This document shows positions 1 to 29,193 of a stretch of 52,969 nucleotides of DNA, piece by piece. Origin of the DNA: a virus (Duplodnaviria; Heunggongvirae; Uroviricota; Caudoviricetes); the IMG/VR virus record IMGVR_UViG_2718217885_000014, positions 1 through 52,969 of that record; one strand, written 5' to 3'. The notes below the pieces were generated by a model, which ran no database searches, had not been told where the DNA came from, and worked only from the letters and a program-made list of their open reading frames with translations. The position numbers and the translations under genes were made by a program. The stretch's first letter is position 1. Every line of letters begins with the position of its first letter.

Positions 1-603
1 TCATGGATTTTTTTGACTGAAAGCGACAATGTAAGAACAACTCTGGCCGCTATCTGGGTTTCTCATTTGGTACTCGCTGGCAAAGGTAAGAGCAAGACAA
101 TCACCGGCTTGTAAATGCTGAGTCTGATGATTGACTCGAAAATCAAGGCTGCCGCTTAACATCCATAGAGTTTGTCCAGAAAGATGCTCATTTGCAGAGG
201 CAGGGATAGTCAATTGCCCCATAGGGGGGATTTCAACTTTTATTAGTTCCGGACATGCACCCGCTGGGGACAAAGACCAGCGGGTAATGCCTGTTTCTTC
301 ATCAATCCAATGTTGTTGCTGGTCAGTCAAAAGTACAAGTGAATTCTGTTGCATCTCAAGCTCTGCAAAAAGCTTTGATAGCGTAATATTCAGTGCATTA
401 GCTAACCGACTAAGTATTGTTGCACTGGGGCTTGAAGTGCCTCGTTCAACTTTGCTGATCATCGCCTGACTGACACCAGATCGTTGGGCAAGCTCTGTAA
501 CAGTCAAGTTTCGAGACTTTCTGAGCTTGAGTAACAAACGTGCAATATCGCTATCGACTATCTGATTTTTAGCTCTTTTATCCATTCTTCTCCCCTCTTT
601 CAC
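1..603 (-). CDS. XRE-family HTH transcriptional regulator with C-terminal cupin-like domain
   Basis: 200-aa ORF; N-terminal HTH resembling XRE/Cro family (LTVTELAQRSGVSQAMISKVERG); C-terminal half cupin-like. TGA stop at 1-3. Confidence 0.65.
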   Translation of the reverse strand: MKEGRRMDKRAKNQIVDSDIARLLLKLRKSRNLTVTELAQRSGVSQAMISKVERGTSSPSATILSRLANALNITLSKLFAELEMQQNSLVLLTDQQQHWIDEETGITRWSLSPAGACPELIKVEIPPMGQLTIPASANEHLSGQTLWMLSGSLDFRVNHQTQHLQAGDCLALTFASEYQMRNPDSGQSCSYIVAFSQKNP

Positions 604-1083
604 CGACCTGATTATGCCATTACATAAATTGCGATTAAATAAATGATTTTACACGTCTCAAATGCATTTTTTCTATACGTTATAGCTTTAGAGTAAGAGC
701 TGGTAACTTCAACTTCCGTATTTGGCACATAACAGTCCTGGATACAGTGACGCACAGTTTCTTTACAAAAACATAGCTACATAGAGGTTGATCATCGTGT
801 CAAATGTACTGTAGAAATACCTACAATAATATTTTTTTTGCTAATATGCGTATAAATGAATAACTATAGACAGATAAAAATATTAGCAAAAATAAAATTT
901 CCAGCACATTAAACCACAACAATAATACAACACTTGGCAAGTTGACCATAAAGAATGAATAAAACGAAACAATAATTCAAACTTAAACAAACTATAAACA
1001 GTTAAACAATATACAATTGACTCATTAAGTTAGATATAAAAAATACATATTCAATCATTAAAACGATTGAATGGAGACCTTTT

Positions 1084-2037
1084 ATGCGGGCGAAACTTCT
1101 GGGAATAGTCCTGACAACCCCTATTGCGATCAGCTCTTTTGCTTCTACCGAGACTTTATCGTTTACTCCTGACAACATAAATGCGGACATTAGTCTTGGA
1201 AATCTGAGCGGAAAAACAAAAGAGCGTGTTTATCTAGCCGAAGAAGGAGGCCGAAAAGTCAGTCAACTCGACTGGAAATTCAATAACGCTGCAATTATTA
1301 AAGGTGCAATTAATTGGGATTTGATGCCCCAGATATCTATCGGGGCTGCTGGCTGGACAACTCTCGGCAGCCGAGGTGGCAATATGGTCGATCAGGACTG
1401 GATGGATTCCAGTAACCCCGGAACCTGGACGGATGAAAGTAGACACCCTGATACACAACTCAATTATGCCAACGAATTTGATCTGAATATCAAAGGCTGG
1501 CTCCTCAACGAACCCAATTACCGCCTGGGACTCATGGCCGGATATCAGGAAAGCCGTTATAGCTTTACAGCCAGAGGTGGTTCCTATATCTACAGTTCTG
1601 AGGAGGGATTCAGAGATGATATCGGCTCCTTCCCGAATGGAGAAAGAGCAATCGGCTACAAACAACGTTTTAAAATGCCATACATTGGCTTGACTGGAAG
1701 TTATCGTTATGAAGATTTTGAGCTAGGTGGCACATTTAAATACAGCGGCTGGGTGGAAGCATCTGATAACGATGAGCACTATGACCCAGGAAAAAGAATC
1801 ACTTATCGCAGCAAAGTCAAAGACCAAAATTACTATTCTGTTTCAGTCAATGCAGGTTATTACGTAACACCTAACGCAAAAGTTTATGTTGAAGGCGCAT
1901 GGAATCGGGTTACGAATAAAAAAGGTAATACTTCACTTTATGATCACAATGATAACACTTCAGACTACAGCAAAAATGGTGCAGGCATAGAAAACTATAA
2001 CTTCATCACTACTGCTGGTCTTAAGTACATTTTTTAA
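1084..2037 (+). CDS. ompT: outer membrane protease OmpT (omptin)
   Basis: 317-aa translation matches E. coli OmpT almost residue for residue from memory (MRAKLLGIVLTTPIAISSFASTETLSF...), including signal peptide. Confidence 0.95.
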   Translation: MRAKLLGIVLTTPIAISSFASTETLSFTPDNINADISLGNLSGKTKERVYLAEEGGRKVSQLDWKFNNAAIIKGAINWDLMPQISIGAAGWTTLGSRGGNMVDQDWMDSSNPGTWTDESRHPDTQLNYANEFDLNIKGWLLNEPNYRLGLMAGYQESRYSFTARGGSYIYSSEEGFRDDIGSFPNGERAIGYKQRFKMPYIGLTGSYRYEDFELGGTFKYSGWVEASDNDEHYDPGKRITYRSKVKDQNYYSVSVNAGYYVTPNAKVYVEGAWNRVTNKKGNTSLYDHNDNTSDYSKNGAGIENYNFITTAGLKYIF

Positions 2038-2223
2038 CGAAGTTAACCAGATTTTCTCCCGGGTGGTATTGTATAACCCCGGGGAATTTGTTTACAGTTA
2101 CAAGTAGACAATATCCACTAATTTTGTAAGCATTTAACCTATGTCATAACGTGTAATCTCTTACCGCAACACAAGACCTCAATATATTCAAATTTTATCT
2201 TTATTCCGATATTCAGAGACACA

Positions 2224-3708
2224 ATGCGAAAAATAATTACTCATTTCAAAGTTGTTTTAACGTTACTTCTACCAGTAACCGTATCTGCCCAGCAGATACA
2301 GTGGCAATCCTGTATGGCCAGTCAATTCAACCACTGGTTTGGTGAGGAAAAACCGTCTCCTGACTTACTATGTGGTTATTTGTCTGTTCCATTAAAATAT
2401 ACAGACACAGGCGGAGATGCTTCTTATGAAAAAAAATCACAAGTCAAACTAGCGTTGACAAAATTGCCGGCAAAAAGCAAGCATAAAGGAAGTATCCTGA
2501 TAATAAGTGGTGGTCCCGGGTTACCAGGCATAAATCCTTATATTAACTTTGACTGGCCAGTCACAAATCTTCGTGAGTCATGGGATATTATTGGATTTGA
2601 TCCTCGAGGCGTCGGACAGTCCACTCCGACAATAAACTGCCGGCAATCAGATACAGAGACTCAGGAAAACATAACCGGAAAGCAACAAGTATTAAATAAA
2701 ATTAATGCCTGTATCCATAATACCGGAGCCGAAGTCATTCGCCATATCGGCTCTAACGAGGCTGTATACGATATTGATCGTATTAGGCAAGCCTTGGGGG
2801 ATAAACAACTGACAGCCGTGGCGTATTCGTATGGAACTCAAATTGCAGCCTTATATGCAGAACGTTTTCCCTACAACGTAAGATCTATCGTTCTTGATGG
2901 AGTCGTCGATATCGATGACCTGGAGGACAACTTCACATGGCAACTCAAACAGGCACAGAGTTATCAGGAAACGTTTGATCGCTTTGCATCCTGGTGTGCG
3001 CGTACAAAAAGTTGCCCGCTTTCTTCAGACAGAGATAAGGCAATAACTCAGTTCCATGAGCTATTATCAAAATTACATCACAAACCTTTATTAGACAGTA
3101 AGGGAGAAAATATATCTTCAGATGAACTCATATCATTAACAACAGACCTTCTGCTATGGCGTTCATCATGGCCAACCCTTGCAACTGCCATACGCCAGTT
3201 CTCTCAGGGGATTGTCAGTAATGAAATTGAAACTGCGCTCAGTGCTCCGATAGCCTCAGAAGAGTCAAGCGATGCTTCGGGGGTAATCCTTTGTGTAGAT
3301 CAGGGGGATGAGCAATTAACACCAGAAGAGCGAAAATCCCGAAAAGACGCTCTTGCGAATGCCTTCCCGGCTATTAACTTTGACAATGGACGTTCCGATT
3401 CACCTGATTTTTGTGAATTATGGCCAATACATAGCGACCTGAACAAAACTCGCCTGAAAAATACTGTTCTGCCCTCTGGTTTACTGTTTGTAGCACACAA
3501 ATACGACCCAACAACGCCCTGGATTAATGCCCGTAAGATGGCAGAGAAATTTTCCAGCCCGTTACTAACAATAAATGGTGATGGGCATACATTAGCTCTC
3601 ACCGGAGTTAATTTATGTGTAGATAAAGCAGTTGTACATCACCTGATCACTCCACAAAAAATAGAAAATATATACTGCCCAGGAAATTCTGAAGCAGAAA
3701 TACAATAA
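2224..3708 (+). CDS. secreted alpha/beta hydrolase (peptidase S33-like)
   Basis: 494-aa ORF with N-terminal signal peptide (LLLPVTVSAQQ) and a GxSxG nucleophile elbow (AYSYGTQ); followed by a strong terminator. Confidence 0.65.
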   Translation: MRKIITHFKVVLTLLLPVTVSAQQIQWQSCMASQFNHWFGEEKPSPDLLCGYLSVPLKYTDTGGDASYEKKSQVKLALTKLPAKSKHKGSILIISGGPGLPGINPYINFDWPVTNLRESWDIIGFDPRGVGQSTPTINCRQSDTETQENITGKQQVLNKINACIHNTGAEVIRHIGSNEAVYDIDRIRQALGDKQLTAVAYSYGTQIAALYAERFPYNVRSIVLDGVVDIDDLEDNFTWQLKQAQSYQETFDRFASWCARTKSCPLSSDRDKAITQFHELLSKLHHKPLLDSKGENISSDELISLTTDLLLWRSSWPTLATAIRQFSQGIVSNEIETALSAPIASEESSDASGVILCVDQGDEQLTPEERKSRKDALANAFPAINFDNGRSDSPDFCELWPIHSDLNKTRLKNTVLPSGLLFVAHKYDPTTPWINARKMAEKFSSPLLTINGDGHTLALTGVNLCVDKAVVHHLITPQKIENIYCPGNSEAEIQ

Positions 3709-3729
3709 TTTCAAAATATTCCGCCATTT

Positions 3730-3780
3730 GCTCCCAATGCAAAACATATATTGCATTGGGAGCATATTCATATTTTTGTT
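3730..3780 (+). terminator. rho-independent terminator downstream of hydrolase gene
   Basis: Perfect 12-bp inverted repeat GCTCCCAATGCA / TGCATTGGGAGC at 3730-3741 and 3752-3763, followed by a T-run at 3772-3778. Confidence 0.55.
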
Positions 3781-3891
3781 CTTCTTGTATGAAATCGTCT
3801 CATGTACACGGCCCTTTTTTCGCCGAGAACTGATATTACTTTAATCAAAAGTTGACGTGTCAGATTCGAAGTAAATTTATAAAATATCAAA

Positions 3892-4128
3892 TCAATATAC
3901 ATTTTGCACCTTCGAGATAGTAATGGCTGTTACTGTAATATGAGTTACAAACAGCTTCATACCCAGAGCTACTGATGTATCAACACGATTCAACAATACC
4001 CGATATTTATTCCATGCCTCCAGCAACGATGTTTCTTCCTCCGTTGTGATTTCCAGGTCTACAGCATCCTGAAGTGGCGCAATATGCTCACTGGCTATCT
4101 GTATCACATAAAACTGCAACACCCGCAT
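3892..4128 (-). pseudogene. tail fibre assembly protein remnant (tfaX-like fragment)
   Basis: 78-aa ORF containing a motif remembered from Tfa-family proteins ([17 protein letters not shown]) but lacking the rest of a Tfa protein; lies just distal to the intact tfa. Confidence 0.35.
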
Positions 4129-4408
4129 TGCTGCCTGCAGCCCCCGAAAACATGACCGACATCATTAGGGTGAACATCGTCAGCCCCTGTATACAGCTGC
4201 CTGTTACTGCTGTTCACCACATCACGCATATCAACAAACGGGAGATTCAGCGTGGAGCAGCATTCCATTATGGCTACACGAACAGTATCAAGTTTCGCTG
4301 TATGACTCAGTGGTGTTGCCGGGCCAATTGTAACTTCGCGATTTTTTCTGGGCTAATTGACGTATAATTCTGGGCGGAAAGCGCGCCCAAAAAGCCCGGA
4401 ATTGACCG

Positions 4409-5002
4409 CTAATTATCGCTAATCACCATTTCCCTGATTGAACGCAAATCATCCAGATTATTCAGTTGTTCCTTCATCTCGCGCTGGCGTTCGTGGATTT
4501 TAAAGCCCTCCGTCACCATGGCCGCCATCATGGCATCGTTCAGCGCAATAAGTTTCTCCCTGGTCAGTACGACGTTGTTATTATCCGCATCAGTCCAGAA
4601 AAAACCCTCCGGAAGCAGTCCGGCCTGTGCTGTTGCAACCACGGGGGCAAGGCGTGACTGCGAGGTTTTTCCACCATCAAAACGACGGCCATCAAACGTG
4701 AAAATAAACTCAACGTTTTCCTGACTGTCGCGCCATGCCTCAATTTCCCGCTTTTTGGCATCCTTTGCCGCTGCAATAAGTTCCGGCGTGACGGTGAACG
4801 GGGCGATTTCGCCCCATTTCCCGCTTTGCAGCTCCTGCCAGATGTGCTGGCCTGTCGGGGCCATATCATCCTGTATGGCAGTATACAGGGCGAACTCCGT
4901 TTCACCTTCAAATAACACCTCGCAGTCAACCGCACCATTTTCAAGATAATGTGCGTTTCTGATACCTTTCACCGCTCTGATTTTCATGCCTGATTTCCTC
5001 AT
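4409..5002 (-). CDS. tfa: tail fibre assembly protein Tfa
   Basis: 197 aa; C-terminal region resembles lambda Tfa (REKLIALNDAMMAAMVTEG); immediately downstream of stf. Confidence 0.85.
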   Translation of the reverse strand: MRKSGMKIRAVKGIRNAHYLENGAVDCEVLFEGETEFALYTAIQDDMAPTGQHIWQELQSGKWGEIAPFTVTPELIAAAKDAKKREIEAWRDSQENVEFIFTFDGRRFDGGKTSQSRLAPVVATAQAGLLPEGFFWTDADNNNVVLTREKLIALNDAMMAAMVTEGFKIHERQREMKEQLNNLDDLRSIREMVISDN

Positions 5003-7098
5003 TACTCAATGCGTACAAAAAGACCGATAAAGCCACGCTGAGTACCATAATTGTTACCCAGGCCCGAAAGCGCCGTGTAACGACCGGGGAAGTTGTATTC
5101 ACCGGCACCGCCAATCACAACCTGCGGTGAGGATGCGTATGTCCCTGTATCACTAACCTGTGCACTCATGGCCAGAGGACCAAGACGGGAACCCGGCACA
5201 GTATCACCGAGTCCCAGAGAAGCATTTTCACCAAAACTTTCTCCCTGATATACCGCCATAATCGGCACACCGACGGCCGGGTATTGGTAATATGAGAACG
5301 GACCATTACCGGCGGTTGAGGACATCAGATATGCCAGGGAGTTGCCGTCATACACAATAAGGCTTGATGTTGCATTCCAGCTGTTACCACTGTAGCGATA
5401 ACGCATACAATGTATGCTGTGCTCATCCTCGTAATACTGGTTGTAGTACAGCAGCGTTTTGAATTTACGCGCCGTGTCTGATTCGTCGTTATCAGACGGT
5501 GACCACATCACATCAATGATACCGTTAAATTTCGTGGTCCCCTTCAGCAGCGTGGAGGAGTCCGCAATACTGACCGCATAACGCCCCGGGGTGACTGTCT
5601 GCAGCCATATAACGAAATCAGCCTGTCCGTTAAATGACAGAGCTTCGGCGCTGGTGAATGCCTGTCCAAACCCATACATCCCGGACAGGGCCAGCCTGCC
5701 CGGTGTGCGGTCACGGATATCACTCTGGGGTTCCATCGTCGCAGCCGCGCTCAGCTCAAGCTCCGTGCGCATGGCTTCAGCCGTGTCATGCGCCAGTAAT
5801 GCGCGGGCCTTCTCTGACAGCGGAGACAGTGAGGCATTCCCGTCTGTATTGAAGTACAGAAGATTATCTGCCCGTTGCGTCAGTGCGCTGATTGCCGTTA
5901 AGACGTCATTAAGCGGTTGTTTGCCTGCCAGCGCGTTTGTGATTGTCGTCGCAAAGTTCGGGTCATTGCCCAGCGCCGCTGCCAGTTCGTTCAGGGTGTC
6001 CAGAACTTCCGGTGATGAGCCAACCAGCGCAGCAAGCAGTTTGCGCACAAACGCTGCGTTCGCTGCTTCCAGACCGGCGGCATCATCCGGTGGGGTTGGG
6101 GTGGTTGGGGTGCCGGTGAAGGCCGGGCTGTCCAGTGGCGCTTTTGTTTTCGTTTCGTCCATGACGGCTTTGACAGCCTTTGGCGTGGCAGCCAGTTCCT
6201 CGCTGTCGTTGTCCGTATAACTACAGAGTTGCACCAGACCTTTTTCTGTCGTGCTGGCATTTGTTGCATTCAGGTCATCAACTATCTGCTGCGCCTCATC
6301 CCTGTACTGTTTCGCTTCCTGCGCATTGTCTGCACCTGCATCCTGGCTGGCTTTAGCCTGTCGGGCGTATTCGGCGGCACTGTTTTTGTGCCCCAGCGCA
6401 GCATTTGCCGACAGTTCTGAACTGGTCGCTGCTGATGATGCGGTATTATGATAAAGGCGGGCACGTTCGGCGGCATCGACTGATTCGTCCCGCGCTGTGC
6501 CTGATGTCTGTGCGCTGTTTTCAGCCTCACCCGCAAAACGTTCCGCATCATCACGGGCCGTTGCGGTTGTCGTCACATCCTGTGCCGTCTGCTGTGCGTT
6601 TCCGGCTGCAGCTTCGGCGCTCTGCTGTGTCTGATTTTTTAGCTCTTCTGCCTCATCCTTACTAACCGCCGCAGATGTTGCTGCATTGATTGCATCATCA
6701 GCAGCTGTTTCTGCTCTCTCCCTGTCACTGACCACCTGCTCAGACAAGCGAACAACGGTATTTACCATTTCCTCAAAACGCTTCATTACCTCAGGGCGTA
6801 AATCACCCTCCTTTGGTGCATCCAGAAAAGCATTCAGCGTATCCGGCTCATCTGTCGGTGCAACATAAATTTCCCCCGCCTTTACAGGAGGATGCCCTGA
6901 GCGGGACAAAAATACATCATAAAATCCCGGCTCAGCATTAATAGTATACCCGCCATCACTTCCCGTAAGACAGGTTGCCACAATATTAACCACAACTGTC
7001 GGACTGGTTCTTCTGGCACGCAATTCAATCGCACAGTTTACGACAGGCTCACCCGCTCCGTCCTTCAGGACACCTGAAATCTTTACTGCCATATTCAC
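5002..7098 (-). CDS. stf: side tail fibre protein Stf
   Basis: 698 aa; N-terminus MAVKISGVLKDG as in lambda Stf; Ala/Ser-rich repeat shaft; conserved motif ATPKAVKAVMDETKTKAPLDSPAFTGTPT. Confidence 0.85.
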   Translation of the reverse strand: MNMAVKISGVLKDGAGEPVVNCAIELRARRTSPTVVVNIVATCLTGSDGGYTINAEPGFYDVFLSRSGHPPVKAGEIYVAPTDEPDTLNAFLDAPKEGDLRPEVMKRFEEMVNTVVRLSEQVVSDRERAETAADDAINAATSAAVSKDEAEELKNQTQQSAEAAAGNAQQTAQDVTTTATARDDAERFAGEAENSAQTSGTARDESVDAAERARLYHNTASSAATSSELSANAALGHKNSAAEYARQAKASQDAGADNAQEAKQYRDEAQQIVDDLNATNASTTEKGLVQLCSYTDNDSEELAATPKAVKAVMDETKTKAPLDSPAFTGTPTTPTPPDDAAGLEAANAAFVRKLLAALVGSSPEVLDTLNELAAALGNDPNFATTITNALAGKQPLNDVLTAISALTQRADNLLYFNTDGNASLSPLSEKARALLAHDTAEAMRTELELSAAATMEPQSDIRDRTPGRLALSGMYGFGQAFTSAEALSFNGQADFVIWLQTVTPGRYAVSIADSSTLLKGTTKFNGIIDVMWSPSDNDESDTARKFKTLLYYNQYYEDEHSIHCMRYRYSGNSWNATSSLIVYDGNSLAYLMSSTAGNGPFSYYQYPAVGVPIMAVYQGESFGENASLGLGDTVPGSRLGPLAMSAQVSDTGTYASSPQVVIGGAGEYNFPGRYTALSGLGNNYGTQRGFIGLFVRIE

Positions 7099-7156
7099 CC
7101 CACAAAAAAGCCCGCCTGAACCGGCGGGCTGTCATAACACTGTGTTACCTGGCTAA

Positions 7157-7756
7157 TCAGAATTTATAACCGACACCCACGATGAAACCGTCAGTGCGCC
7201 AGTCGCCACTGCCGGAGCCTTCATAAGCAATATCAATGGCCACGGATTCGGTCGGGTTAAACTGCACGCCAGCTCCCCACGCCAGAGACGTGTTGCTGTG
7301 GCGACCGTCATCACTTCCGGTCAGCACATCGTGCGTTTTCCCCTTATTGTCAGTTACGCGGAGATAATCCCCGGAGAAAGTCGACACACGGCTGTAAGCC
7401 ACACCCGCCATCGCATACGCGCTGAACCATTCATTCACGCGCACAGACGGCCCCGCCATTACGCTGAACCAGCGGTTACGAACGGAATCTTCATGCCAGC
7501 GGGTATCACTGTAACGGGTCAGCTGGCGATTCTTGTCTCCTGCATAGCTGAATGACGTCACCAGCCCCAGCGTGTCCGTAAATTCATAACGGTATTTCAC
7601 GTTAATGCCCTTCAGGTCATCGTTTCCGGGCATATCAGTATGGGACTGAAGATACCCGCCGCTTAGTGTGGACTGATGCTCTGCTGCACTCGCTGGCGTA
7701 GCAGCGGCGATCTGCCAGACTACTGCGGACAAAATAACAGCACATAATTTACGCAT
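7157..7756 (-). CDS. lom: outer membrane protein Lom (Ail/Lom family)
   Basis: 199 aa with signal peptide and beta-barrel-like sequence ending in F; lambda position between J and stf. Confidence 0.9.
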   Translation of the reverse strand: MRKLCAVILSAVVWQIAAATPASAAEHQSTLSGGYLQSHTDMPGNDDLKGINVKYRYEFTDTLGLVTSFSYAGDKNRQLTRYSDTRWHEDSVRNRWFSVMAGPSVRVNEWFSAYAMAGVAYSRVSTFSGDYLRVTDNKGKTHDVLTGSDDGRHSNTSLAWGAGVQFNPTESVAIDIAYEGSGSGDWRTDGFIVGVGYKF

Positions 7757-7823
7757 AATTACCTCTCGCTTTTCTGCAATAAAAAAGGCGCCATTTCTGG
7801 CGCCCGTATATGGGTTATAAAAT

Positions 7824-10800
7824 TCAGCTGATACTGATGCCTGCGGTGGCTTTCTTCATCACCACAACCAGCAAATCGCTGATACTTGCTGTGGGATACC
7901 AGTCATTTACCAGCCATGATGACACCGAAAACTCCAGCGTCATGTGGCCGCGACCAGCTGGCATATCAATAACGCCACTGTAAATCAGCGTATTATCCAG
8001 CGCGGTACGGTTATAAATTTCAGCACCGTTTTTCCGTACTATCAGGCGGCATGACGAATAAATATCGTTATTCTCCCGCTCATGTTTAGCGCCGCTGAAT
8101 GCCACCGCCGGAATAACAATCTGCCGGTCAAACGGCTGATCGTCATAAACCCTGACGGTGATGGTCCCTGATGGCCACCGTTCCGGTGCACGGGAGTCCC
8201 GGGGGAAAGCTTTGCCCACTGTTTTAACGAGATCGCCTTCAATCTGGTTGGCGGACAGTTTTCCCAGAACCCGACAGTTCTCGTTAATCGTGACGTTGTT
8301 GAGCGTCCCGGAGTTCGCATTCACGTTACCGCTGATATCGGCATTTTTCGCCGTCAGCCGCCCGTCCGGTGTCAGGGAAAATACCGGCGGATTGCCGCCG
8401 CTGGTAATGGTGGGAGCCGTCAGGCGTTTCAGGAACACGTCGTTCATGAATATCTGATCGCCCTGACCAACAAACATCGGCTTTGTGTTGCCATTCGCAG
8501 GATTAATCATCGCAATCCTGTCTGCCGCCAGCAGCACCTGGCTCTGCATGCCGTCAGGGGTGTTCTCAATACCGGCACCGATACCCGCAATATAAAGGCG
8601 ACCATCCTGCATCTGCTGCAGTTTCACGGCCCACATACTGTTCAGGTTATTACTGGTGTCCGTCTGAACCTTTTGTATCTGCTGGATGGTGGCCTCCTGA
8701 TCTCCCAGCTTCTGGTCCGTTGTCGTCATGATTTCACTGCTTTTTTGATCCACATACTGGCGAACCTGCGCTATCTGGCGTGCATTCTCCTCATTACTCT
8801 GACTGACCGTCTGCGTGAGTTCGCTGCTGACGTTATCCACTCTCTGGCTCACCTGTGATATACCCAGTGACAGCTCATCATTTTTTTTCGCAACCAGCTG
8901 TGTGAGGCTGTTTTCTGTCTCCCCGATTTTTTGGGTCACTTCAGCAATATCACTCTCTATCTGCTGATTGATCTCATCCTCCAGTTGCTCAACTTCACTG
9001 CGCAATGCCGAGGCATTAATACGATCGTTCAGCTCCTGCCCCAGCAGGGTGCTGTTTATTTTCCCTTCAAAAAAATTGAGATACACCTCAGCATCATTAA
9101 CCGGCCGGCCGACAGCTTCCACAAACGCTGATTTACCGACGATGTTCACACTGCGGATATAAAAGTAATAATCATGGCCCGGCCTGATATTAATACTGGC
9201 AGCTATCCAGTACAGCGCCGTGCCAAGATAGCGGGCTGTGGTTTCAACCTGCCTGATATCAGCAATCCGTTTTTCCGAGAACCAGAACTCAAACTGTACC
9301 GTCGGGTCATACACCGCAAGACGCGGGACTGCCGTTATCTGAAAATACCCCGGTATCAGTTCAATAGTGACAGGCGCTGCCGGTGCCGCAATCCGGAACG
9401 ATACCGACGCCGGATCACCCTGCTGCCCCCGGGCATTTACAGCCCGGACCGTCAGCATATAACGCCCCAGCGCCAGTTGTCTGAAGCGGTATGTGGTTTC
9501 CGTCGTCCGGGCTGTGCTGACCAGCCGCTCACTGCCGTCGTCCGCTGCCACGGTCAGGCGAAGCATGAAGCTCACGCCCTTCACCACCTTCGGCGTGTCC
9601 CAGCGGGCCAGTACCTGATACTCCCCGCTGTCTGCGGTGACTTCGGCGGTAAGGTGCTGCACCGCTGGCGGTGTGACACCATTCACCGTGCCGCTCTGGT
9701 CGCCGTCAAAGTGCGCCCCGTTATCCACGATGGCTTCTTTTTCCGGTACATGCTGCACGGCAGTGATGGCATACGTGCCGTCGTCGTTCTCACGGATACT
9801 CACGCAGCGGAACAGGCGCTGGCGCAGCGTCGGCAGCTTCAGCCCCCACACGCTGTATTCGGCAACGCCGTCAGGAACACGGCTCACTTTCACCTTCATG
9901 CCGTCGGTGACGGACTGAACCTCCACGCTGACCGGATTGCCATTTCCGTCAACCAGGCTTATCAGCGTGGTGCCGGAGGATGGCAGCGTGATTTCACGGT
10001 CGAGCGTCAGCGTCCGGGTCTGGCTGTTCACCGCCAGCACACGACCACCGGTGCTGATACCGGCATAGTCATCATCACAGATTTCAATAACATCGCCCGG
10101 TACATGGCGAAGCCCTTCGGCACCCACGCTGAAGTCCACGGTCTGCGTTTCCAGCAGTTCCGTTTTAATCAGCCACAGCCCGGCGCGGTGCGCCTGCCCC
10201 CGGCTGGTACAGCCAAAGGCATCCATCTTCGTGACGTTACGACCGTAACGGGCAATGGCCTGCGTGTCCTCCACAAGCTCTGTTGCCGTCTCCCAGCCGT
10301 TGTCCGGGTCAATCCAGTTCACCTCAACGGCATTATGGCGGTCCTTCAGGGCGCTGAAGCTGTAGCGGAACGGCGCGCCATCATCCGGCATCACCACATT
10401 ACTGCGGTTATAGGTCCACACCTTATCTGATGGTCGGTCCTGCACGAACGTCAGCGTCTGCCCGTTCCATACCGGCATACAGCGCATCGCCGAGCAGAAA
10501 TCACTGAGCACATCCCACGCCTTGCGCTGTGTGGTCAGGTACGCATTACAGGTGATGCGCGGCTCCGTGCCGCCAAAACCGTCCGGCACCGACTGATCGC
10601 AATGCTGGCCGATGACATACAGCGCCCATTTGTCCACATCCGCCGCACCAAGACGTTTCCCCATGCCGTAGCGCGGATGGGTCAGCATATCCCACAGACA
10701 CCAGGCCGGGTTGTTGCTGTATGCCGGCTTAAACGTTCCGTCCCAGATACCGCTGTATTGCCGCGTCTGCGGGTTATAGTTCGACGGCACCTGCAGAATG

Positions 10801-11522
10801 CGCCCGCGCAGATGATAATTACGGCTCACCTGCTGGCTGCCGAACTGCTCCGAATCCACCTGCACGCCGACCAGTGCCGTGTTCGGGTAGCACTGTTTCA
10901 CATCGATGATTTCAGTGTATGACGACCAGAGCGTTTTGTTCTGCAGCTGGTCTGTGGTGCTGTCCGGCGTCATCCTGCGCATCCGTATATTGAACGGGCG
11001 CGGCGGCAGGTTACCCACCACCACCGAGGCCAGATACTGCGAGGTGGTTTTGCCCTTAATGGTGATGTCTTTTTCCGTCACCCAGCCACCATTACGCTGG
11101 ATCTGAACCAGCAGGCGGACTTCCGACGGATTCCGGTCCCCCTTTGAGGTGGTTTCCACCAGTGCCTGCACACCGAAGGTAAAGCGCAGACGGTCAATGT
11201 TTGCAGATGTGATGGTCCGGGTGATCGGCGTGTCGTATTTCACTTCCGTACCCAGCACCGTCTCGGAACCGGAGGATTCAAATCCCTCCGGCGGTGCCTG
11301 CTCCTGCTCACCTGCCCGGAACACGACCGTGACACCGGAGATGTTGGTATTCCCCTCAGTGTCCAGCACCGGCGTACTGTTCAGCAGCACGCTTTTTAAT
11401 CCATCCACCGGACCTTCAATCGGCCCTTCGCTGATGGCATCAATCACACTCAGTAACTGCGTGGACTTCAGGTTGTCCTTCGCTTCGCGCGGGGTATGCC
11501 CCTTACTGCTGCCTTTACCCAT
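7824..11522 (-). CDS. J: tail tip host-specificity protein J
   Basis: 1232 aa; N-terminus [45 protein letters not shown] matches lambda J; lambda gene order. Confidence 0.95.
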
Positions 11523-11582
11523 TCCTCACGCTCCATAAACGACAAAACCGCCCGCAGGCGGTTTCACATAAAACATTTTGCA

Positions 11583-12254
11583 TCAGCGACCAATCACCAC
11601 AACCTGACCACCGTCCCCCTCGTCTGCCGTGCTGATCTCCTGAGAAGCCACCCGCGACCCCACGCGCATTTCACCGTACAGAACAGGCAGAACATTGCCC
11701 TGGGCAACCATGTTATCCAGTGAGGAGAAATAGGTGTTCTGCTTACCGTTATCCGTTGTCTGTGTACGGGGAGTTCTGGCTTTCGGTGCCAGCATCTGCG
11801 CCACACCACCAAGTACCATACTGGCACCGAGAGAAAACAGGATACCGGTCATACCACCGGCCCCAATGGCTGCCCCCCATGCTGCAAGGGTGGCTCCGGC
11901 AGTAAAGAATGATCCGGCAATGGCGGCAGCCCCCAGGACAATCTGGAATACGCCACCTGACTTGGCCCCGGCGACTCTGGGAACAATATGAATCACAGCG
12001 CCGTCAGGCAGAACCTCATGTAACTGCGCCGTCAATCCGGACGTGCTGACGTCCCGCCCGGAAATCCGTACCTGATACCAGCCGTCGCTCAGTTTCTGAC
12101 GAAACGCCGGGAGCTGTGTGGCCAGCGCCCGGATGGCTTCGGCCCCCGTTTTCACACGCAGATCGATGCGGCGGCCAAATCGTTGTAAATCCCCGTAAAG
12201 GCAGATGCGTGCCATGCCTGGTGACGCCAGAGGGAGTGTGTGCGTCGCTGCCAT
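11583..12254 (-). CDS. I: tail assembly protein I
   Basis: 223 aa, MAATHTLPLASPGMARICLYGDLQRFGRRIDLRV as in lambda I; overlaps the K 3' end as in lambda. Confidence 0.9.
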   Translation of the reverse strand: MAATHTLPLASPGMARICLYGDLQRFGRRIDLRVKTGAEAIRALATQLPAFRQKLSDGWYQVRISGRDVSTSGLTAQLHEVLPDGAVIHIVPRVAGAKSGGVFQIVLGAAAIAGSFFTAGATLAAWGAAIGAGGMTGILFSLGASMVLGGVAQMLAPKARTPRTQTTDNGKQNTYFSSLDNMVAQGNVLPVLYGEMRVGSRVASQEISTADEGDGGQVVVIGR

Positions 12255-12895
12255 TTGTCGGTATACCTCTCTCGTTTGCTCAGTTGTTCAGGAATATGGT
12301 GCAGCAGCTCGCCGTCACCACAGTAAATGGCGGCATGATTCGGCACCGATGAACCAAAGCAGCACAGCAGCACATCGCCCGGTTGTGCTGATGACAACGG
12401 CACCTGATACAGCCCTGTGGCCTCCAGATTATCCAGATAGAGATTCTGACCTGATTTCCACCAGTCATCATGTCGGTAAAAATCCGGCAAATCGATACCT
12501 GCAAGATGATAGGCATCGCGGAACAGCGTATAACAGTCTGTCACCCCGTGCTCAAAACGCCGCCCGGTGAGATGCGGCACACAGCGGAACTTATGAATCA
12601 CTCCCCGGCAGACCAGCCACCACGGCAAATCACTCTGCACCTGCAGCCGCCGGTCGGCCTCACTCAGCCAGGGCAGACCACCGGGGTGGCTGTGGACCAG
12701 CGCCACAATCTCACCCTGCATTTCTGCCTGCAGCCAGTCTTCCGGCGACATACGGAAATACGCCTCCGGCTCACCGGAAATATTCACGCAGGGAAAATAT
12801 CTTTCCCCCTCCGGCGCTCTCACCACGAAGCCGCACGACTCCGCTGGCGCACATCGCCGGGCGTGCGCCAGAATCGCTGATTCTGTCTGTGTCAT
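12152..12895 (-). CDS. K: tail assembly protein K (NlpC/P60-like with MPN-like domain)
   Basis: 247 aa, MTQTESAILAHARRCAPAESCGFVV as in lambda K. Confidence 0.9.
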   Translation of the reverse strand: MTQTESAILAHARRCAPAESCGFVVRAPEGERYFPCVNISGEPEAYFRMSPEDWLQAEMQGEIVALVHSHPGGLPWLSEADRRLQVQSDLPWWLVCRGVIHKFRCVPHLTGRRFEHGVTDCYTLFRDAYHLAGIDLPDFYRHDDWWKSGQNLYLDNLEATGLYQVPLSSAQPGDVLLCCFGSSVPNHAAIYCGDGELLHHIPEQLSKRERYTDKWQRRTHSLWRHQAWHASAFTGIYNDLAAASICV

Positions 12896-12900
12896 GGGAT

Positions 12901-13599
12901 TTACTGCGAAAGTTTGTTAATGGAAAGGAAGCCGCCAAAGTTGCCGACGTTATTGCGGAACTTACAACCGCTCAGGCATTTGCTGCATTTATCCTTCGTG
13001 ATATCGGACGTTGGCTGGTCATATTCATCCGCGACAGCCGGACCGCTATAACCGCACTCATCACCGCGATAGGTCCAGGTGCAGGTGTTGGCCAGCATGA
13101 TACGTCCCGGAAAAACAGCGCCGTCCGTTTCCGTCGGCGTGGACAGTACAAAGGAGGCACTCACCGCGCTCAGTTCGCTGCACTGCTCGATGCGCCAGCG
13201 GCTGATCACCTCCTGCTCCGGATCGGCGTCACTGTTTCCGTTGACGAAGTTCACCGCATCCAGAAAACGGGCGTAAACCTTACGCCGGACCACCGTTCCG
13301 CCGACCAGACTCTGCAGATCTTCCGCCATCCCGGTGACCATACCGTACAGGTTAGAAACCGTCAGCGTGGGGCGCGTACTGGTGCCTTTGCCATTCAGTT
13401 CAAAACCACTCCCCTGAATGGGATACGGCTGATACTGTCGCCCCTGCCAGGTGACCGGCTCACCTTTTTCGTTCTGCTCATTACAGAAAAAATAACGTTC
13501 TCCACCGACCTCTGTCAGGTCGATTTCCCAGAGCACCACGCTGGCCGACTGCTCCGCACGGGTGCATTCATTCAGTGTTTCCTGCCGGATATCCTGCAT
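12901..13599 (-). CDS. L: minor tail protein L
   Basis: 232 aa matching lambda L (MQDIRQETLNECTRAEQSASVVLWEIDLTEVGGERYFFCNEQNEKGEPVTWQGRQYQPYPIQGSGFELNGKGTS). Confidence 0.9.
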   Translation of the reverse strand: MQDIRQETLNECTRAEQSASVVLWEIDLTEVGGERYFFCNEQNEKGEPVTWQGRQYQPYPIQGSGFELNGKGTSTRPTLTVSNLYGMVTGMAEDLQSLVGGTVVRRKVYARFLDAVNFVNGNSDADPEQEVISRWRIEQCSELSAVSASFVLSTPTETDGAVFPGRIMLANTCTWTYRGDECGYSGPAVADEYDQPTSDITKDKCSKCLSGCKFRNNVGNFGGFLSINKLSQ

Positions 13600-13928
13600 C
13601 AGTTCACCACCTGTTCAAACTCTGCGCTGAACTCAACACGCAGCATACTGACCCGCGACGACCATTTTGCGCAGGTCACCTTTATCTGCCGCCACTCATA
13701 AGGCGGCGTCCACAGAAAGGCTTTCCAGCCCCCGTGCTCAGCCAGAAACGACTCCAGCGCCGTGGCCTCCTCACGGGAGACAGACAGCGTCACGCTGTAC
13801 GTTTTCAGGTCAGCGTTCAGCCCGGCAGGCGCTCGCTGGGAATAGCCATCACCAAAGCGCACTTTCCTGACGGAAGGGGCCGAAACCACATCCATACCGG
13901 GTTTCACTTTCCAGCGGAAGGTTTTCAT
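13599..13928 (-). CDS. M: minor tail protein M
   Basis: 109 aa matching lambda M (MKTFRWKVKPGMDVVSAPSVRKVRFGDGYSQRAP). Confidence 0.9.
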   Translation of the reverse strand: MKTFRWKVKPGMDVVSAPSVRKVRFGDGYSQRAPAGLNADLKTYSVTLSVSREEATALESFLAEHGGWKAFLWTPPYEWRQIKVTCAKWSSRVSMLRVEFSAEFEQVVN

Positions 13929-16504
13929 CGTCCACCTCCGGAGAACAGGCCACCATCACGCATCTGTGTCTGAATTTCATCACGGGCACCCTTGCGGGCC
14001 ATGTCATACACTGCCTTCATCATCTGTGGACCTGGCAGACCATTCGTACCGTCGTTCTGAATCACCACGTGATTGTTCTGATTAAAATTAATGCCTTCAG
14101 CCCGCCGCATCTGCGCCGGACTTCCGGCACCGCCCACATAACCACCTTCCGCATAGCCCCGCATCAGGCGGTACAGGTTGCCGACACCAATCCGGCTGGT
14201 TGCCTCCTTCGTGAAGACAAATTCACCACGGTGAACAATCCCCGCTGGCTCATATTTGCCGCCGGTTCCTGTGAATCCTCCGGTTGCAAAATGGAATTTC
14301 GCCGCAGCGGCCTGAATGGCTGTACCGCCTGACGCGGATGCGCCGCCACCAACAGCCCCGCCAATGGCGCTGCCGATACTCCCGACAATCCCCACCATTG
14401 CCTGCTTAAGCAGAATTTCTGTCATCATGGACAGCACGGAACGGGTGAAGCTGCGCCAGTTCTGTTCACTGCCGGTCAGCATCGCCGCCATATTCTGTGC
14501 AATACCATCAAAGGTCTGCGTGGCAGCACTTTTAACCTGCGACATACTGTCCGTGGCGCTCTCTTTCCACTCGCTCCAGCCGGACCTGAGGCCTGCCATC
14601 CAGCTCCCGCGAAGCAGGTCTTCAGCCGCCCAGGTCTTTTTCTGCTCTGACATGACGTTATTCAGCGCCAGAGGATTATCGCCATACTGTTCCTTCAGGC
14701 GCTGTTCCGTGGCTTCCCGTTCTGCCTGCCGGTCAGTCAGCCCCCGGCTTTTCGCATCAATGGCGGCCCGTTTTGCCCGTTGCTGCTGTGCGAATTTATC
14801 CGCCTGCTGCGCCAGCGTGTTCAGGCGCCCCTGATACGTAACCTTGTCACCAAGTGCAGCCAGCTGGCGTTTGTACTCCAGCGTCTCGTCTTTATGCGCC
14901 AGCAGGGATTTCTCCTGTACAGACAGCTGGCGACGTTGCGCCGCCTCCTCCAGTACCGCGAACTGACTCTCCGCCTTCCACAAATCCCGGCGCTGCTGGC
15001 TGATTTTCTCATTCGCTCCGGCATGCTTCTCCAGCGTCCGGAGTTCTGCCTGAAGCGTCAGCAGGGCTGCATGCGCCCGGTCTTCCTGACGCTCCCCGGC
15101 TGACACTTTGACACCTGACGACTTCGGTTTTTTCAGCGTCGATTCATAATCCTTTTTCGCCGCCGCCATCAGCGTGTTGTAATCCGCCTGCAGGATTTTC
15201 CCGTCTTTCAGGGCATTATTCAGCTCTTCCTGCCGGTCAGTATATTTCTCCAGTGGCGTCAGCAGGCGCTCATACGCCTTCTGCGCCTCTCCGGTATACT
15301 TCAGCTGTGACGCCTCACGCTCAGCCCGGTCCCTTGCCACCAGTTCACCGGCTTTTTCCATATCCGACTGCAGCGTGGCTGCCGCCAGCCCCAGACGGGC
15401 ATTTTCACGGTCATCCCATGCACCCTGAAGGTTGGCACGGAAAGAGGAGGTCTTTCCCCGGCGCTGACTCCGGCTCTGGTACCACTGCCATTTTTTATCC
15501 GCCTCATCAAATGCCTTCTGCGCACTGGCGAGCATATCCGCTGAGGATTCAGGACGACCGATATCCAGGATGGCATCCCACATCAATTTGAATGCCTTCC
15601 CGGTTTTATCCGCCCAGTTTTCCAGCGTCCCCATGTTTTCTTTCAGGCGACGGGTCTGCTCATCAAAGCCTTTTGTGGCGATATCGTTCGCCGCCTGTAA
15701 GGCCCCTGCCTCATCCCCCGAACGCTGCAGCTGCGCAACATACGCAATCTGCTCTGCCGTCACGTTACGGAACTGGCGCGCCATAGCCATCAGTCCCGAC
15801 GTCGGGTCGGTGGTCAGCTTTCCAAAAGCCTCTGCAACCTTGTCCACTTCCACACCGGATGCAGAAGCAAAACGCGCCACACTCTGGTTGATGGCATCAA
15901 ACTGTTCACCACCACGCACACCGGCATTCACCAGGGCTGCCAGTGACTCACTCGCCTGGTTAAACGTCAGCCCTGCTGCCTGTCCGGCTCTGGACAGGAC
16001 CAGCATGCGATCTGCCGTCAGACCCGACTGATTGCCGGAAAGGACCAGCGTTTTGTTGAAATCGGACAGGGTTGAGTTGCCCTGATACCAGGCATACGCC
16101 AGCGCACCGGTCGCCACCGCCAGCGAGGTGGCCCCGACCATCGGCAGGGTGATCGCACCGGCAAGCCCCCTGAACATGGGGATCATCCCGCCGAAGGAGT
16201 CCTTAACCTGACCACCCTGTTGCAGCAGGATCAGCCACGGACTTTGCCCGCCTGCAAGCTGCGTGGCCACGTCGGTGAACTGTGCAGGCAGCATACGCAT
16301 GGCGGCTTTATACTGCCCGACGGAAATCCCCGCTTTCTGTGCAGCCAGCGCCTGCCGGTTCATCGACTGTTCAACGACTGCCGCTGTTTTTTTCGCATCA
16401 CTTTCCGTACCGGAAAAATGACGCCTGACTCTGGCCATCTGCTCGTCAAATCTGGCCGCATCAAGACTTAAATCAACGACCAGATCGCCTACCGGTTCAG
16501 CCAT
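13925..16504 (-). CDS. H: tail tape measure protein H
   Basis: 859 aa (lambda H is 853 aa from memory); N-terminus MAEPVGDLVVDLSLDAARFDEQMARV; coiled-coil-rich middle; Gly-rich C-terminal region. Confidence 0.9.
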   Translation of the reverse strand: MAEPVGDLVVDLSLDAARFDEQMARVRRHFSGTESDAKKTAAVVEQSMNRQALAAQKAGISVGQYKAAMRMLPAQFTDVATQLAGGQSPWLILLQQGGQVKDSFGGMIPMFRGLAGAITLPMVGATSLAVATGALAYAWYQGNSTLSDFNKTLVLSGNQSGLTADRMLVLSRAGQAAGLTFNQASESLAALVNAGVRGGEQFDAINQSVARFASASGVEVDKVAEAFGKLTTDPTSGLMAMARQFRNVTAEQIAYVAQLQRSGDEAGALQAANDIATKGFDEQTRRLKENMGTLENWADKTGKAFKLMWDAILDIGRPESSADMLASAQKAFDEADKKWQWYQSRSQRRGKTSSFRANLQGAWDDRENARLGLAAATLQSDMEKAGELVARDRAEREASQLKYTGEAQKAYERLLTPLEKYTDRQEELNNALKDGKILQADYNTLMAAAKKDYESTLKKPKSSGVKVSAGERQEDRAHAALLTLQAELRTLEKHAGANEKISQQRRDLWKAESQFAVLEEAAQRRQLSVQEKSLLAHKDETLEYKRQLAALGDKVTYQGRLNTLAQQADKFAQQQRAKRAAIDAKSRGLTDRQAEREATEQRLKEQYGDNPLALNNVMSEQKKTWAAEDLLRGSWMAGLRSGWSEWKESATDSMSQVKSAATQTFDGIAQNMAAMLTGSEQNWRSFTRSVLSMMTEILLKQAMVGIVGSIGSAIGGAVGGGASASGGTAIQAAAAKFHFATGGFTGTGGKYEPAGIVHRGEFVFTKEATSRIGVGNLYRLMRGYAEGGYVGGAGSPAQMRRAEGINFNQNNHVVIQNDGTNGLPGPQMMKAVYDMARKGARDEIQTQMRDGGLFSGGGR

Positions 16505-17335
16505 ACCGGACTCCTCCTGCGATCCCTTCTGATACTGTCATCAGCATTACGTCATCCTCCGTCATGTCCGCCACATCCGGGGAAGCGGGGATAACTTCAT
16601 TCCCGTCCGGGCCAAAGCGGACGCCTCCGGCAAGCCCTGCCGCTTTCTGCATCAGCACATCATCTTCAGGCTCTTCGTCAGCCTCACGCCGGTTCAGCAG
16701 ACTGAAATCCAGCGGATGCATATCCGGATCGCTGAAAAACAGGCTGAGCACGGTGTACGTCAGCCCGGAAAAGTGCATATCCAGCAGAACATCATGAAAA
16801 TAATGGGTACTGTAAAAGCGGTGCCAGTCGGCATACTCCGTGGATGACATCCCGGCAAGCATGGCACGCCAGTCGGGTCGCCCCATCTCGCGCGCCAGTT
16901 TCAGGGCAAAACTCAGCTCACCGTCGAACACTTTCCCGCAGAAACAGGCTCTGCAGGCCCGGCGTCCTCTGCCTGTTCAGGGGCATCATTCACCACAAAC
17001 TCATACATACCGGACAGCCGGTACACCACGTTTTCAGCATGAGAAATTGCCTCTGTGGGCCAGGTGGTAAGCACTTCCTGCTCAATCTGTTTAACGGCTT
17101 CATTCATGGAAGGCTGCTTTGTCTTCTGCGGATGGTTATGCCACAGGGACATAGCCACCACAAAAGCACCGGTTCTGATGGCGTCTTCCACTGTAAACTT
17201 CCGGTTGCTGTCTGACTCCGCCTGTTCTGCCTGCCGTTTCATCAGGGCGAGATGCTCAATGCGCTGCAGGGCTGACAGTTCAGAAAGCGTGACGGTCACA
17301 CCGTTATGTTCAAATGATTCGGTTTTCAGGAACAT
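16497..17335 (-). CDS. tail assembly chaperone G-T fusion made by programmed -1 frameshift
   Basis: Minus-strand slippery heptamer G GGA AAG (plus-strand ctttccc, 16931-16937) near the end of G; the -1 frame continues as the lambda T sequence (FDGELSFALKLAREMGRPDWRAMLAGMSSTEYADWHRFY) to 16497. Confidence 0.75.
16913..17335 (-). CDS. G: tail assembly chaperone G
   Basis: 140 aa, MFLKTESFEHNGVTVTLSELSALQRIEHLALMKRQ as in lambda G; TGA stop at 16913-16915. Confidence 0.9.
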   Translation of the reverse strand: MFLKTESFEHNGVTVTLSELSALQRIEHLALMKRQAEQAESDSNRKFTVEDAIRTGAFVVAMSLWHNHPQKTKQPSMNEAVKQIEQEVLTTWPTEAISHAENVVYRLSGMYEFVVNDAPEQAEDAGPAEPVSAGKCSTVS

Positions 17336-17350
17336 CGCTGACTCTCCGGA

Positions 17351-18091
17351 TTAACTGGCGGTGACGGTAATTTCTGCAACCGCAGCAAACTCACCATTAC
17401 CGGATACAACCGGAATGTTGACCTTGCCTGCAGCAACGCCGTTCACGGTGATGGTCATACCACTGACCGACACGGTGGCTTTTGTTTTATCCGCAGACAC
17501 CGCACGAAAGCTCTTGTCGGTTACGCCCTCCGGCTGGAATGCCACGGTCAGCGTGGTGCTCTGCCCTTTCACCACCGAGGTGCTGGCAGGCGTCACGGTC
17601 ATGCCGGTTGCCGCTGTTACCGTGCTGCGATCTTCTGCCATCGACGGACGTCCCACATTGGTGACCTTCACCGTGCGGGTGATCACTTCCTTCGCCGTCA
17701 CCGCCTTACCGATACTGCTGACCCAGCCACGGAACACATCGACCGTGCCGTTCGGGAAGCGGATTTTATAGGCACGGGTATCGCCTTCATTAAACCACGC
17801 CAGCAGCGCCTGCTGCCCCTGCTCTCCGGGCATCCACGCCAGCGTGAAGCTGGTATCTCCGGCAGATTTCTGCCCCTGCCCGGTCGCAGTCCAGTCTGCA
17901 TCTTCATCATCGAGATAGCTGTCGTCATAGGACTCAGCGGTCAGTTCGCCGGGCGTCAGGTCTTTAACTTTTGCCAGACGCGACCAGTCAACGTCTGAAA
18001 GCGGGTTCGCATAAGGGTCGCCGCTCCCGTTATAAACCCACAGGGTGGTTCCGGCACCTTTCACCGGTATTGCTGGATTTGGTACAGGCAT
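17351..18091 (-). CDS. V: major tail protein V with C-terminal Ig-like domain
   Basis: 246 aa from internal ATG ([20 protein letters not shown]), matching lambda V; the track ORF begins 10 codons upstream at a TTG. Confidence 0.9.
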
Positions 18092-18098
18092 ATCGTCC

Positions 18099-18494
18099 TC
18101 ACATTTCATAGGTAATGACATAAGTCAGATCGGCTGAACTCCACAGGCCCGCATCATCGTCGCGCCGGTAGTCATAGCCGCTGGCCACCATACTGGTGAT
18201 CAAATCTGACAGTGCCGGGATATCACTCATCACCGGATAAATCCGGGACTCCATCCACGCATCCAGCTCTGAATCCGGCACCTGAGCAGGCAGGAAAACT
18301 TCGATATGCAGCTCCGCCTGCCAGGTATCGCTGTCCAGCTCTTCGCCCGTGTATTCAGCGCCGGTGAGATAAACGGCAACTGCCGGAAAATCCGCCTCAT
18401 CAAAAACAGCGGGGCGACCATCAAAAAACGTCGCCCCGGTGTCATGCTTCTCCAGTGCATCCAGTACGGCTGCACGGAGTTCAGTATGTTTCAT
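18099..18494 (-). CDS. U: tail terminator protein U
   Basis: 131 aa, [52 protein letters not shown] as in lambda U. Confidence 0.9.
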
Positions 18495-19069: not shown

Positions 19070-19080
19070 ACATCCCCCTT

Positions 19081-19434
19081 TCAGCGGCGACGGTTAACGG
19101 CAGGCGGTACGCCCCGCCCAAGCCAGAGATGACAGCTTCCACCATCATCCGGCGAAACCCGGTCTATCCAGAAGTTTTCCTCACCGATGGTCAGCGTGTC
19201 TCCACGCCGCAGTTGCCGCACCTCATCAGTCCGGACAAACAGGGACGGGCTGGAGCCTTCAACGCGCACGCCCTGTCCGGCATAGCTGATATTTTCAGGG
19301 TCATCAAAAACACCACGTATTACTGCGCCGGACTGCTCACCGGATGTCATGGTGGCTGACGTTCCCATGTACCTGCGTATCGTTTCATCGGCGCGGGCAA
19401 TGGCAGCATCGAACAGGTTATCGAAATCAGCCAC
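19081..19434 (-). CDS. FII: head-tail joining protein FII
   Basis: 117 aa, MADFDNLFDAAIARADETIR as in lambda FII. Confidence 0.9.
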   Translation of the reverse strand: MADFDNLFDAAIARADETIRRYMGTSATMTSGEQSGAVIRGVFDDPENISYAGQGVRVEGSSPSLFVRTDEVRQLRRGDTLTIGEENFWIDRVSPDDGGSCHLWLGRGVPPAVNRRR

Positions 19435-19445
19435 AGCGCCTCCCG

Positions 19446-29174: not shown

Positions 29175-29193
29175 ATCCTCACTTTACATCGGG

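Follow-up and report, generated by a model that had tools for sequence, protein, structure and literature searches.

The window analysed here is a 52,969-nucleotide stretch of DNA of a tailed virus (Caudoviricetes; IMG/VR record IMGVR_UViG_2718217885_000014), which carries a lambda-like prophage whose integrase gene lies next to the threonine tRNA gene thrW. At the opposite, tail-fibre end of the prophage, positions 1 to 3780 hold genes for an XRE/cupin regulator, the outer-membrane protease OmpT and a predicted exported alpha/beta hydrolase, and this raises the question of whether these three genes belong to the phage or to the chromosome of its host. We find that 1-3780 is very probably integrase-distal cargo of the thrW prophage, in the position equivalent to the b region of lambda. 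On the lambda map, the b region is the position between the tail-fibre genes and attP-int.

A 47-nt repeat bounds the prophage

The integrase side of the element lies within the window and comprises the following features.

50348-51511, plus strand: prophage tyrosine integrase, stopping 14 bp from the 3' end of thrW
51526-51601, minus strand: thrW, tRNA-Thr(CGT), intact; proA then starts at 51716
51525-51571, no strand assigned: integrase-proximal 47-nt attachment (att) core within the 3' part of thrW, located by an exact repeat search

The earlier note on this DNA had seen no thrW copy between the remnant of a tail-fibre-assembly (Tfa) gene and the window start, and we likewise find none anywhere in 1-5200. 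When the 25-mer from the 3' end of thrW was searched across the whole window with up to three mismatches, the sole match was the one at 51526, and the longest exact match to the whole tRNA in 1-5200 was 8 nt, against a mean of 9.5 nt in shuffled sequence, which leaves no thrW fragment there. Ungapped scans of the window with 15-25-mers for a degenerate thrW copy gave nothing above chance, and direct repeats across the entire window consisted of short chance families only. According to the note, an att core within 3709-4400 would mark the three genes as host flanking DNA; a search of this interval found none, and this refutation fails.

The left flank was read in two complete genomes, 09-00049 and OkiPb01715, both identical to window 1-4500; together with N96, three complete genomes are 100% identical to the window over this interval. 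Upon querying with 24 kb, the best matches were again 09-00049 and OkiPb01715, at 99.7% with a 711-bp gap, and the remainder of the window agrees at 99.6-100% with the 09-00049 thrW prophage, save for 75 substitutions in 1-19500 and a stretch of 711 bp that 09-00049 lacks. Reading towards position 1 from the left, the order in 09-00049 and OkiPb01715 is paoABCD, a truncated LysR gene, a 47-nt thrW copy, a spacer of ~350 bp, a GNAT acetyltransferase gene and then the window. This far att copy, ATGGTGCCGATAATAGGAGTCGAACCTACGACCTTCGCATTACGAAT, repeats window 51525-51571 exactly over all 47 nt, at a distance of 813-859 bp to the left of position 1, so that the upstream search for the end of thrW, which the note had proposed, recovers the missing copy in two near-identical genomes.

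The outer flanks, when joined in silico (1517 nt), match E. coli W, O103:H2 12009, DH5alpha and others without a break and at 100% identity, and the reconstituted empty site is covered to at least 80% in 818 genomes. The comparison with empty thrW sites that the note had called for is therefore available on a large scale, and in these 818 genomes the LysR remnant joins thrW directly and the cargo genes are absent. The note had offered two alternatives, an attL outside the window with the genes as cargo, or a decayed boundary; the 47-nt copy and the empty site bear out the former, whereas the latter is very unlikely, as the copy is intact in two relatives. The element is bounded exactly by the 47-nt repeat; with its insertion sequence (IS) insertions counted, the distance between the two cores is ~52.4 kb, and in all likelihood the prophage of the window reaches ~0.8 kb past the left edge.

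The surroundings of the two cores show further similarities. The ~20 nt just outside the integrase-side core (GTAACTTATTGATTTAG, within 51484-51524) resemble the native sequence downstream of thrW (GTAACTCTTTGATTTTA, within L001 14100-14140, L001 being the 09-00049 locus) and also the same position in the argU phage ev243 (L011 ~3620-3650), which suggests that an imperfect attP-attB similarity runs past the 47-nt core. Just inside the far att copy, ~126 nt (L001 14188-14313) are found at an identity of at least 97% in several genomes without the ompT block at thrW, and different thrW elements seem to have this ~126-nt arm in common. Beyond the far att copy, integrase or recombinase remnants occur in N96 (L008 4964-5127) and 08-00022 (L005 575-2900), pointing to tandem occupation of thrW in these genomes.

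A low-GC block of four genes fills the integrase-distal end

Between the far att copy and the tail-fibre genes we identify the features listed below, in order from left to right.

25-462 bp left of position 1 (NZ_CP015228.1 356307-356744; L001 14539-14976): GNAT acetyltransferase, 145 aa, YjaB-like
1-585, minus strand: XRE-family helix-turn-helix (HTH) regulator of 194 aa, probably with a cupin domain at its C-terminus, divergent from ompT (HTH_3, E 5e-17)
586-1083, no strand assigned: AT-rich divergent intergenic region between the regulator and ompT, in which homology to K-12 begins at 971
1084-2037, plus strand: ompT, omptin outer-membrane protease (Pfam Omptin, 432 bits; NF008222)
2224-3708, plus strand: Hip1/TAP-family (peptidase S33-like) alpha/beta hydrolase, 494 aa, with predicted export (Pfam; Hip1 structure alignment)
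3729-3764, plus strand: terminator-like hairpin with a 14-bp stem, 3' of the hydrolase gene (inverted-repeat search)
3892-4107, minus strand: Tfa remnant, C-terminal part only (Caudo_TAP, E 3e-18)
4409-5002, minus strand: DUF4376 Tfa-like gene of the resident prophage
5002-7098, minus strand: side tail fibre gene of the resident prophage

Beyond the side tail fibre gene follow lom and then J. The three genes that the earlier note had placed in 1-3780 are borne out with their coordinates, since the open reading frames (ORFs) and the Pfam and NCBIfam matches agree. The fourth, the GNAT gene, was absent from the note and is placed on the far side of the regulator, before the far att copy is reached; it matches the NF007807 equivalog with 234 bits against a cut-off of 134, is annotated as YjaB-like in phage PhiR29_1, and is broken by IS629 or IS66 in O157 Sakai and 08-00022. 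GC content is 39-42% across window 1-4000, whereas it is 52-60% in the genes for tail and head. The Tfa remnant aligns with positions 76-121 of the 131 of the Caudo_TAP profile and is labelled in RefSeq as 'incomplete, missing N-terminus'. Next to it, on the minus strand, a 54-aa ORF at 4104-4268 resembles the C-terminal part of GDSL/SGNH hydrolases, with a match to Lipase_GDSL_2 that stays below cut-off (E 1.7e-4). This stretch takes the place that the ybcY methyltransferase gene has in O55, O157 and the phage genomes.

The same block at other prophages and in phage genomes

Upon comparison with other genomes, we observe that the block, which starts at the inner edge of the att core and runs as far as the Tfa remnant (window -845 to 4093), recurs at other prophage ends with 98.3-98.9% identity. 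Homology with the O157, O55 and phage copies stops at 4093-4106, the Tfa remnant being the right-hand edge. At the other sites the block does not stand beside thrW: in O55:H7 CB9615 it adjoins a 3' fragment of argU near envY-ybcH-nfrA, at the DLP12 locus, whereas in O157:H7 F3113 it is present from -747 on and adjoins a truncated icd-type gene fragment near iraM, the attachment locus of e14. In O157:H7 Sakai, the annotation 'prophage Sp8; lambda-like phage' includes the hydrolase as ECs_1662 and ompT as ECs_1663; the regulator, which by position and DNA identity is ECs_1664, comes next and is followed by IS629. The copies in Sp8 of Sakai and in other O157:H7 and O55:H7 genomes are the same block at ~99% DNA identity, including the distal upstream region of ompT and the regulator. 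Apart from their attachment sites, they differ from the window in carrying a ybcY methyltransferase gene beyond the Tfa remnant at the O157 and O55 loci, which is absent here, and, in Sakai, in a GNAT gene cut by IS629 and an annotated end of Sp8 that falls between ompT and ECs_1664.

Deposited phage genomes, too, contain the block. Window 1-4106 is covered by PhiR29_1 and PhiR29_2 (46 kb), and the order in PhiR29_1 is Stf, Tfa, YbcY, Tfa, hydrolase, ompT, XRE-cupin regulator, GNAT and an argU-type att core. The genes for OmpT and the hydrolase occur in ev243 (Nesevirus), 2G7b, Turner, PhiR26_1, PhiR30_1 and PhiR49_1 as well, and the ev243 genome reads Lom, tail fibre, methyltransferase, Tfa, hydrolase, ompT, attP core, integrase and recombination genes. 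Like the window, all of these coliphages have the two genes between the tail-fibre genes and attP-int, with 97-99% identity; unlike it, most lack the regulator and the GNAT gene, and ev243 and PhiR29_1 have an argU-type core. The integrase of the window is 73% identical to that of the argU-integrating ev243.

In K-12, ompT is located in the defective lambdoid prophage DLP12 (PMC5723341). As in the window, ompT of DLP12 has a Tfa remnant on one side and the att copy distal to the integrase on the other, the OmpT proteins are 98% identical, and ~90 nt beside the att core are conserved. The order there is tfaD, ybcY, tfaX, appY, ompT and the prophage end beside envY. DLP12 differs in occupying argU and not thrW, in having appY where the hydrolase stands here, and in having neither an XRE/cupin nor a GNAT gene upstream of ompT; the shared sequence amounts only to window 971-2087, which comprises ompT together with 113 bp on its upstream side and 50 bp on its downstream side. 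Given its low GC content, its occurrence at three different att sites and its presence in deposited phage genomes, the term accessory island, which the earlier note had used for these genes, is apt.

Of the complete E. coli genomes compared, 5426 in all, 4374 match window 1-4500 at least in part. The hydrolase gene is matched in 1253 of the 5426 (~23%), nearly all at an identity of at least 99%, and the block of regulator and GNAT gene in 393, being complete in 105 and cut in most O157:H7 genomes. The distribution of the block is therefore nested. At its att side, a stretch that begins CTGCGCTCACACGTCCCAC and ends GTTTTGTCCCAC is common to thrW-type and argU-type elements and in part to icd-type ones, and at the opposite end the tfa-derived sequence matches other tfa genes too. 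From these similarities we infer that the block may be moved among lambdoid phages by recombination in its two flanks, which would serve as linkers.

Alternative explanations for the position of the block

Several observations weigh against integrase-distal cargo as the explanation, or limit it. The left flank is inferred from near-identical relatives and not from the source genome itself, and in N96 (100% identical over 1-4500) and 08-00022 (99.8%) other elements or IS66 stand beyond or inside the GNAT gene. With its IS66-family and IS421 insertions, the prophage may have lost excision or packaging, in which case its cargo would be fixed. The junction at 4094-4408 differs from that at other loci, as ybcY is absent and a GDSL-hydrolase fragment is present, and its scars indicate that the block was joined to this tail-fibre region by recombination and was not always in this phage. 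As regards expression, promoter-like matches are no commoner than in shuffled sequence.

The view that the three genes are a flank of the host chromosome, with the boundary between the Tfa remnant and the hydrolase, has next to no chance of being right: the lack of an att copy inside the window is the sole hint in its favour, and it is refuted by the 818 genomes in which the LysR remnant runs straight into thrW, with the absence of att-like sequence from 1-5200 and the presence of the block at the ends of prophages in argU and icd and in deposited phage genomes telling against it as well. We also considered that the block might be a leftover of an older, separate thrW element in tandem, bounded by att copies but lying outside the phage genome that is excised and packaged. 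Tandem arrays at thrW do exist, as the remnants beyond the far att copy in N96 and 08-00022 testify, and both the scars at 4094-4408 (the Tfa remnant and the GDSL-hydrolase fragment) and the presence of the ~126 nt inside the far att copy in many genomes without the rest of the block would fit such a history. However, no third att copy separates the block from the tail-fibre genes, the extra element in N96 and 08-00022 lies beyond the far att copy, Sp8 of Sakai and DLP12 of K-12 are annotated with ompT inside the prophage, and phage genomes of 45-48 kb have the same contiguous order of tail fibre/tfa, block and attP-int, which together make a tandem leftover very unlikely.

A far boundary that has decayed in the strain of the window itself, leaving the prophage locked in, appears extremely unlikely. 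The source genome left of position 1 is unseen and IS elements are active here in relatives, both of which leave some room for decay, but the 47-nt copy is perfect in both complete genomes that have the junction, and both are identical to window 1-4500. Cargo of the thrW prophage thus remains by far the most probable account of positions 1 to 3780.

OmpT, its upstream region and the divergent regulator

OmpT is matched over its full length (Pfam PF01278, 432 bits; NCBIfam NF008222, 703.7 bits against a cut-off of 537) and is identical to K-12 OmpT at 312 of 317 positions, the differences being at precursor positions 40, 226, 254, 290 and 316. The catalytic residues of OmpT, as described in the literature on its structure, are Asp83, Asp85, Asp210 and His212 (mature numbering), and the five differences spare every catalytic position.

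The ~113 bp 5' of ompT (971-1083) are common to all ompT loci, whereas the sequence farther upstream belongs to the block of enterohaemorrhagic E. coli (EHEC) type only. In a spread sample of 3086 genomes, 347 are matched upstream over the full length of the region, with the regulator included, and the remaining matches begin at 969-971. The intergenic region contains a 20-nt inverted repeat (828-847/880-899), and the frequency of promoter-like hexamers in it is no higher than in shuffles. A 42-nt stretch at 678-719, 5' of ompT, is 74% identical to the ompT-internal stretch 1555-1596. An omptin pseudogene fragment at 678-719 (RYSFRVRAGNF against RYSFTARGGSY) was rejected as chance, as tblastn aligned 11 residues only, with an E value of 0.05 on a 498-nt target.

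The regulator sits in the upstream portion that is peculiar to the EHEC-type block. Its N-terminus is an HTH domain of the Cro/C1 type, with a match to PDB 1y9q (E 2e-9) over the HTH in addition to that of Pfam, and its C-terminus matches Cupin_2 weakly (E 7e-4, 19.7 bits against a cut-off of 27.2). Matches to PDB are confined to the HTH, bar one cupin at a weak E of 0.011, and the RefSeq label is helix-turn-helix protein. The NCBIfam model of PuuR aligns with residues 16-189 at 43.5 bits against a cut-off of 211, so far under the cut-off that the regulator is not PuuR itself. As ompT and the hydrolase gene are found without the regulator in several phage and many bacterial genomes, it is dispensable for their carriage.

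According to one report, ompT in EHEC is expressed at a 32-fold higher level than in enteropathogenic E. coli (EPEC), and the difference is attributed there to distal promoter sequences >150 bp upstream of the start codon (PMC6854850, citing Thomassin et al. 2012). A speculative scenario, which we regard as unlikely, is that the divergent XRE/cupin regulator is an unrecognised determinant of this ~32-fold EHEC expression, and that ompT and the hydrolase gene form a phage-borne two-protease operon whose products act serially on host peptides, with cleavage at the outer membrane followed by periplasmic trimming.

A hydrolase of the Hip1/TAP family beside ompT

The hydrolase matches Abhydrolase_1 (PF00561; E 3e-33, 115.9 bits) and the TAP-like Abhydrolase_4 (PF08386; E 2e-14, 54.1 bits), both over cut-off, and aligns over residues 21-475 with structures of M. 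tuberculosis Hip1 (E 3.5e-51). Its triad Ser202 (YSYGT), Asp428 (YDPTTP) and His455 (GDGHT) falls on the Hip1 motifs YSYGT, DPATP and QHT, and the N-terminus, MRKIITHFKVVLTLLLPVTVSA/QQ, reads by inspection as a Sec signal peptide. Hip1 itself, with the triad S228/D463/H490, is a cell-envelope serine protease related to the tripeptidyl peptidases of Streptomyces (PMC4022732). The phage-borne protein resembles Hip1 (Rv2224c, CaeA) and the Streptomyces proteins TAP, SlpD and SlpE in its full-length homology, its alpha/beta fold with a TAP C-terminal domain and its Ser-Asp-His triad, and it further resembles Hip1 in its predicted export and its cysteine richness (10 Cys, against 11 in Hip1). Unlike Hip1, it is encoded by a phage of a Gram-negative host and adjoins an omptin, and its signal peptide is without a lipobox, so that the protein is probably periplasmic and not anchored in the envelope. 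Members of the Hip1/TAP family work as proteases or esterases. On the strength of its sequence, we consider the hydrolase to be probably an exported, periplasmic serine peptidase or esterase.

No inverted repeat was found in 2030-2240, which covers the 186-bp gap between ompT and the hydrolase gene, and the strong hairpin at 3729-3764 lies directly beyond the latter. The two genes are adjacent in every locus and phage genome examined. Expression of the cargo in O157 has been described in the literature (PMC2241611, PMC6854850), and in a Sakai microarray ECs1662 and ECs1663 fell together, with log2 values of -2.53 and -2.72, and were placed in one cluster (PMC2241611). The gap without a hairpin, the constant adjacency and the joint fall on the microarray are consistent with co-transcription, and ompT and the hydrolase gene most likely form one host-expressed unit that ends at the hairpin.

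Other features of the prophage

Two IS elements lie inside the prophage, at coordinates converted from the annotation of a relative: an IS66-family element (tnpA, tnpB, tnpC) at 27603-30191, between the lysis genes and a terminase gene, and the IS4-like IS421 at 39373-40485, adjoining rusA. With these insertions the prophage may be defective for lytic growth. The 711 bp of the window that are absent from 09-00049 (26862-27572) are situated between the IS66-family element and the nu1-like gene of the small terminase, and 09-00049 appears to have undergone an IS-adjacent deletion of this stretch, which contains a 70-aa ORF (27241-27453) that by eye resembles K-12 YlcI. Finally, ARAGORN places tRNA genes for Arg(TCT) and Met(CAT) inside the prophage at 33686-33939, and RefSeq has three tRNAs at the equivalent place in 09-00049.

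Implications for lysogenic conversion

In the mechanism that we propose, the tyrosine integrase would have inserted a lambda-like phage into the 3' end of thrW, leaving an element bounded by 47-nt direct repeats, whose cargo is a four-gene, low-GC block of the GNAT gene, the divergent XRE/cupin regulator, ompT and the gene for a predicted exported serine hydrolase of Hip1/TAP type. The lysogen would thereby gain an outer-membrane protease that can cleave cationic antimicrobial peptides, together with another hydrolase or protease that is probably located in the periplasm. The block may pass between lambdoid phages with different integrases by way of recombination in the tfa remnant and in ~100 conserved nt that adjoin the att core.

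The presence of ompT on lambdoid prophages is long established from DLP12 and Sp8, and the kind of arrangement described here is not new; annotations of it exist in public genomes and phages. Modest new details are the Hip1-family hydrolase that travels with ompT and the XRE/cupin regulator in the distal upstream region of ompT of the EHEC type, a region that the literature ties to high OmpT expression in EHEC. Overall, with the question of the boundary settled, ompT and the genes beside it can be classed as phage-borne genes of lysogenic conversion and not as genes of the host.

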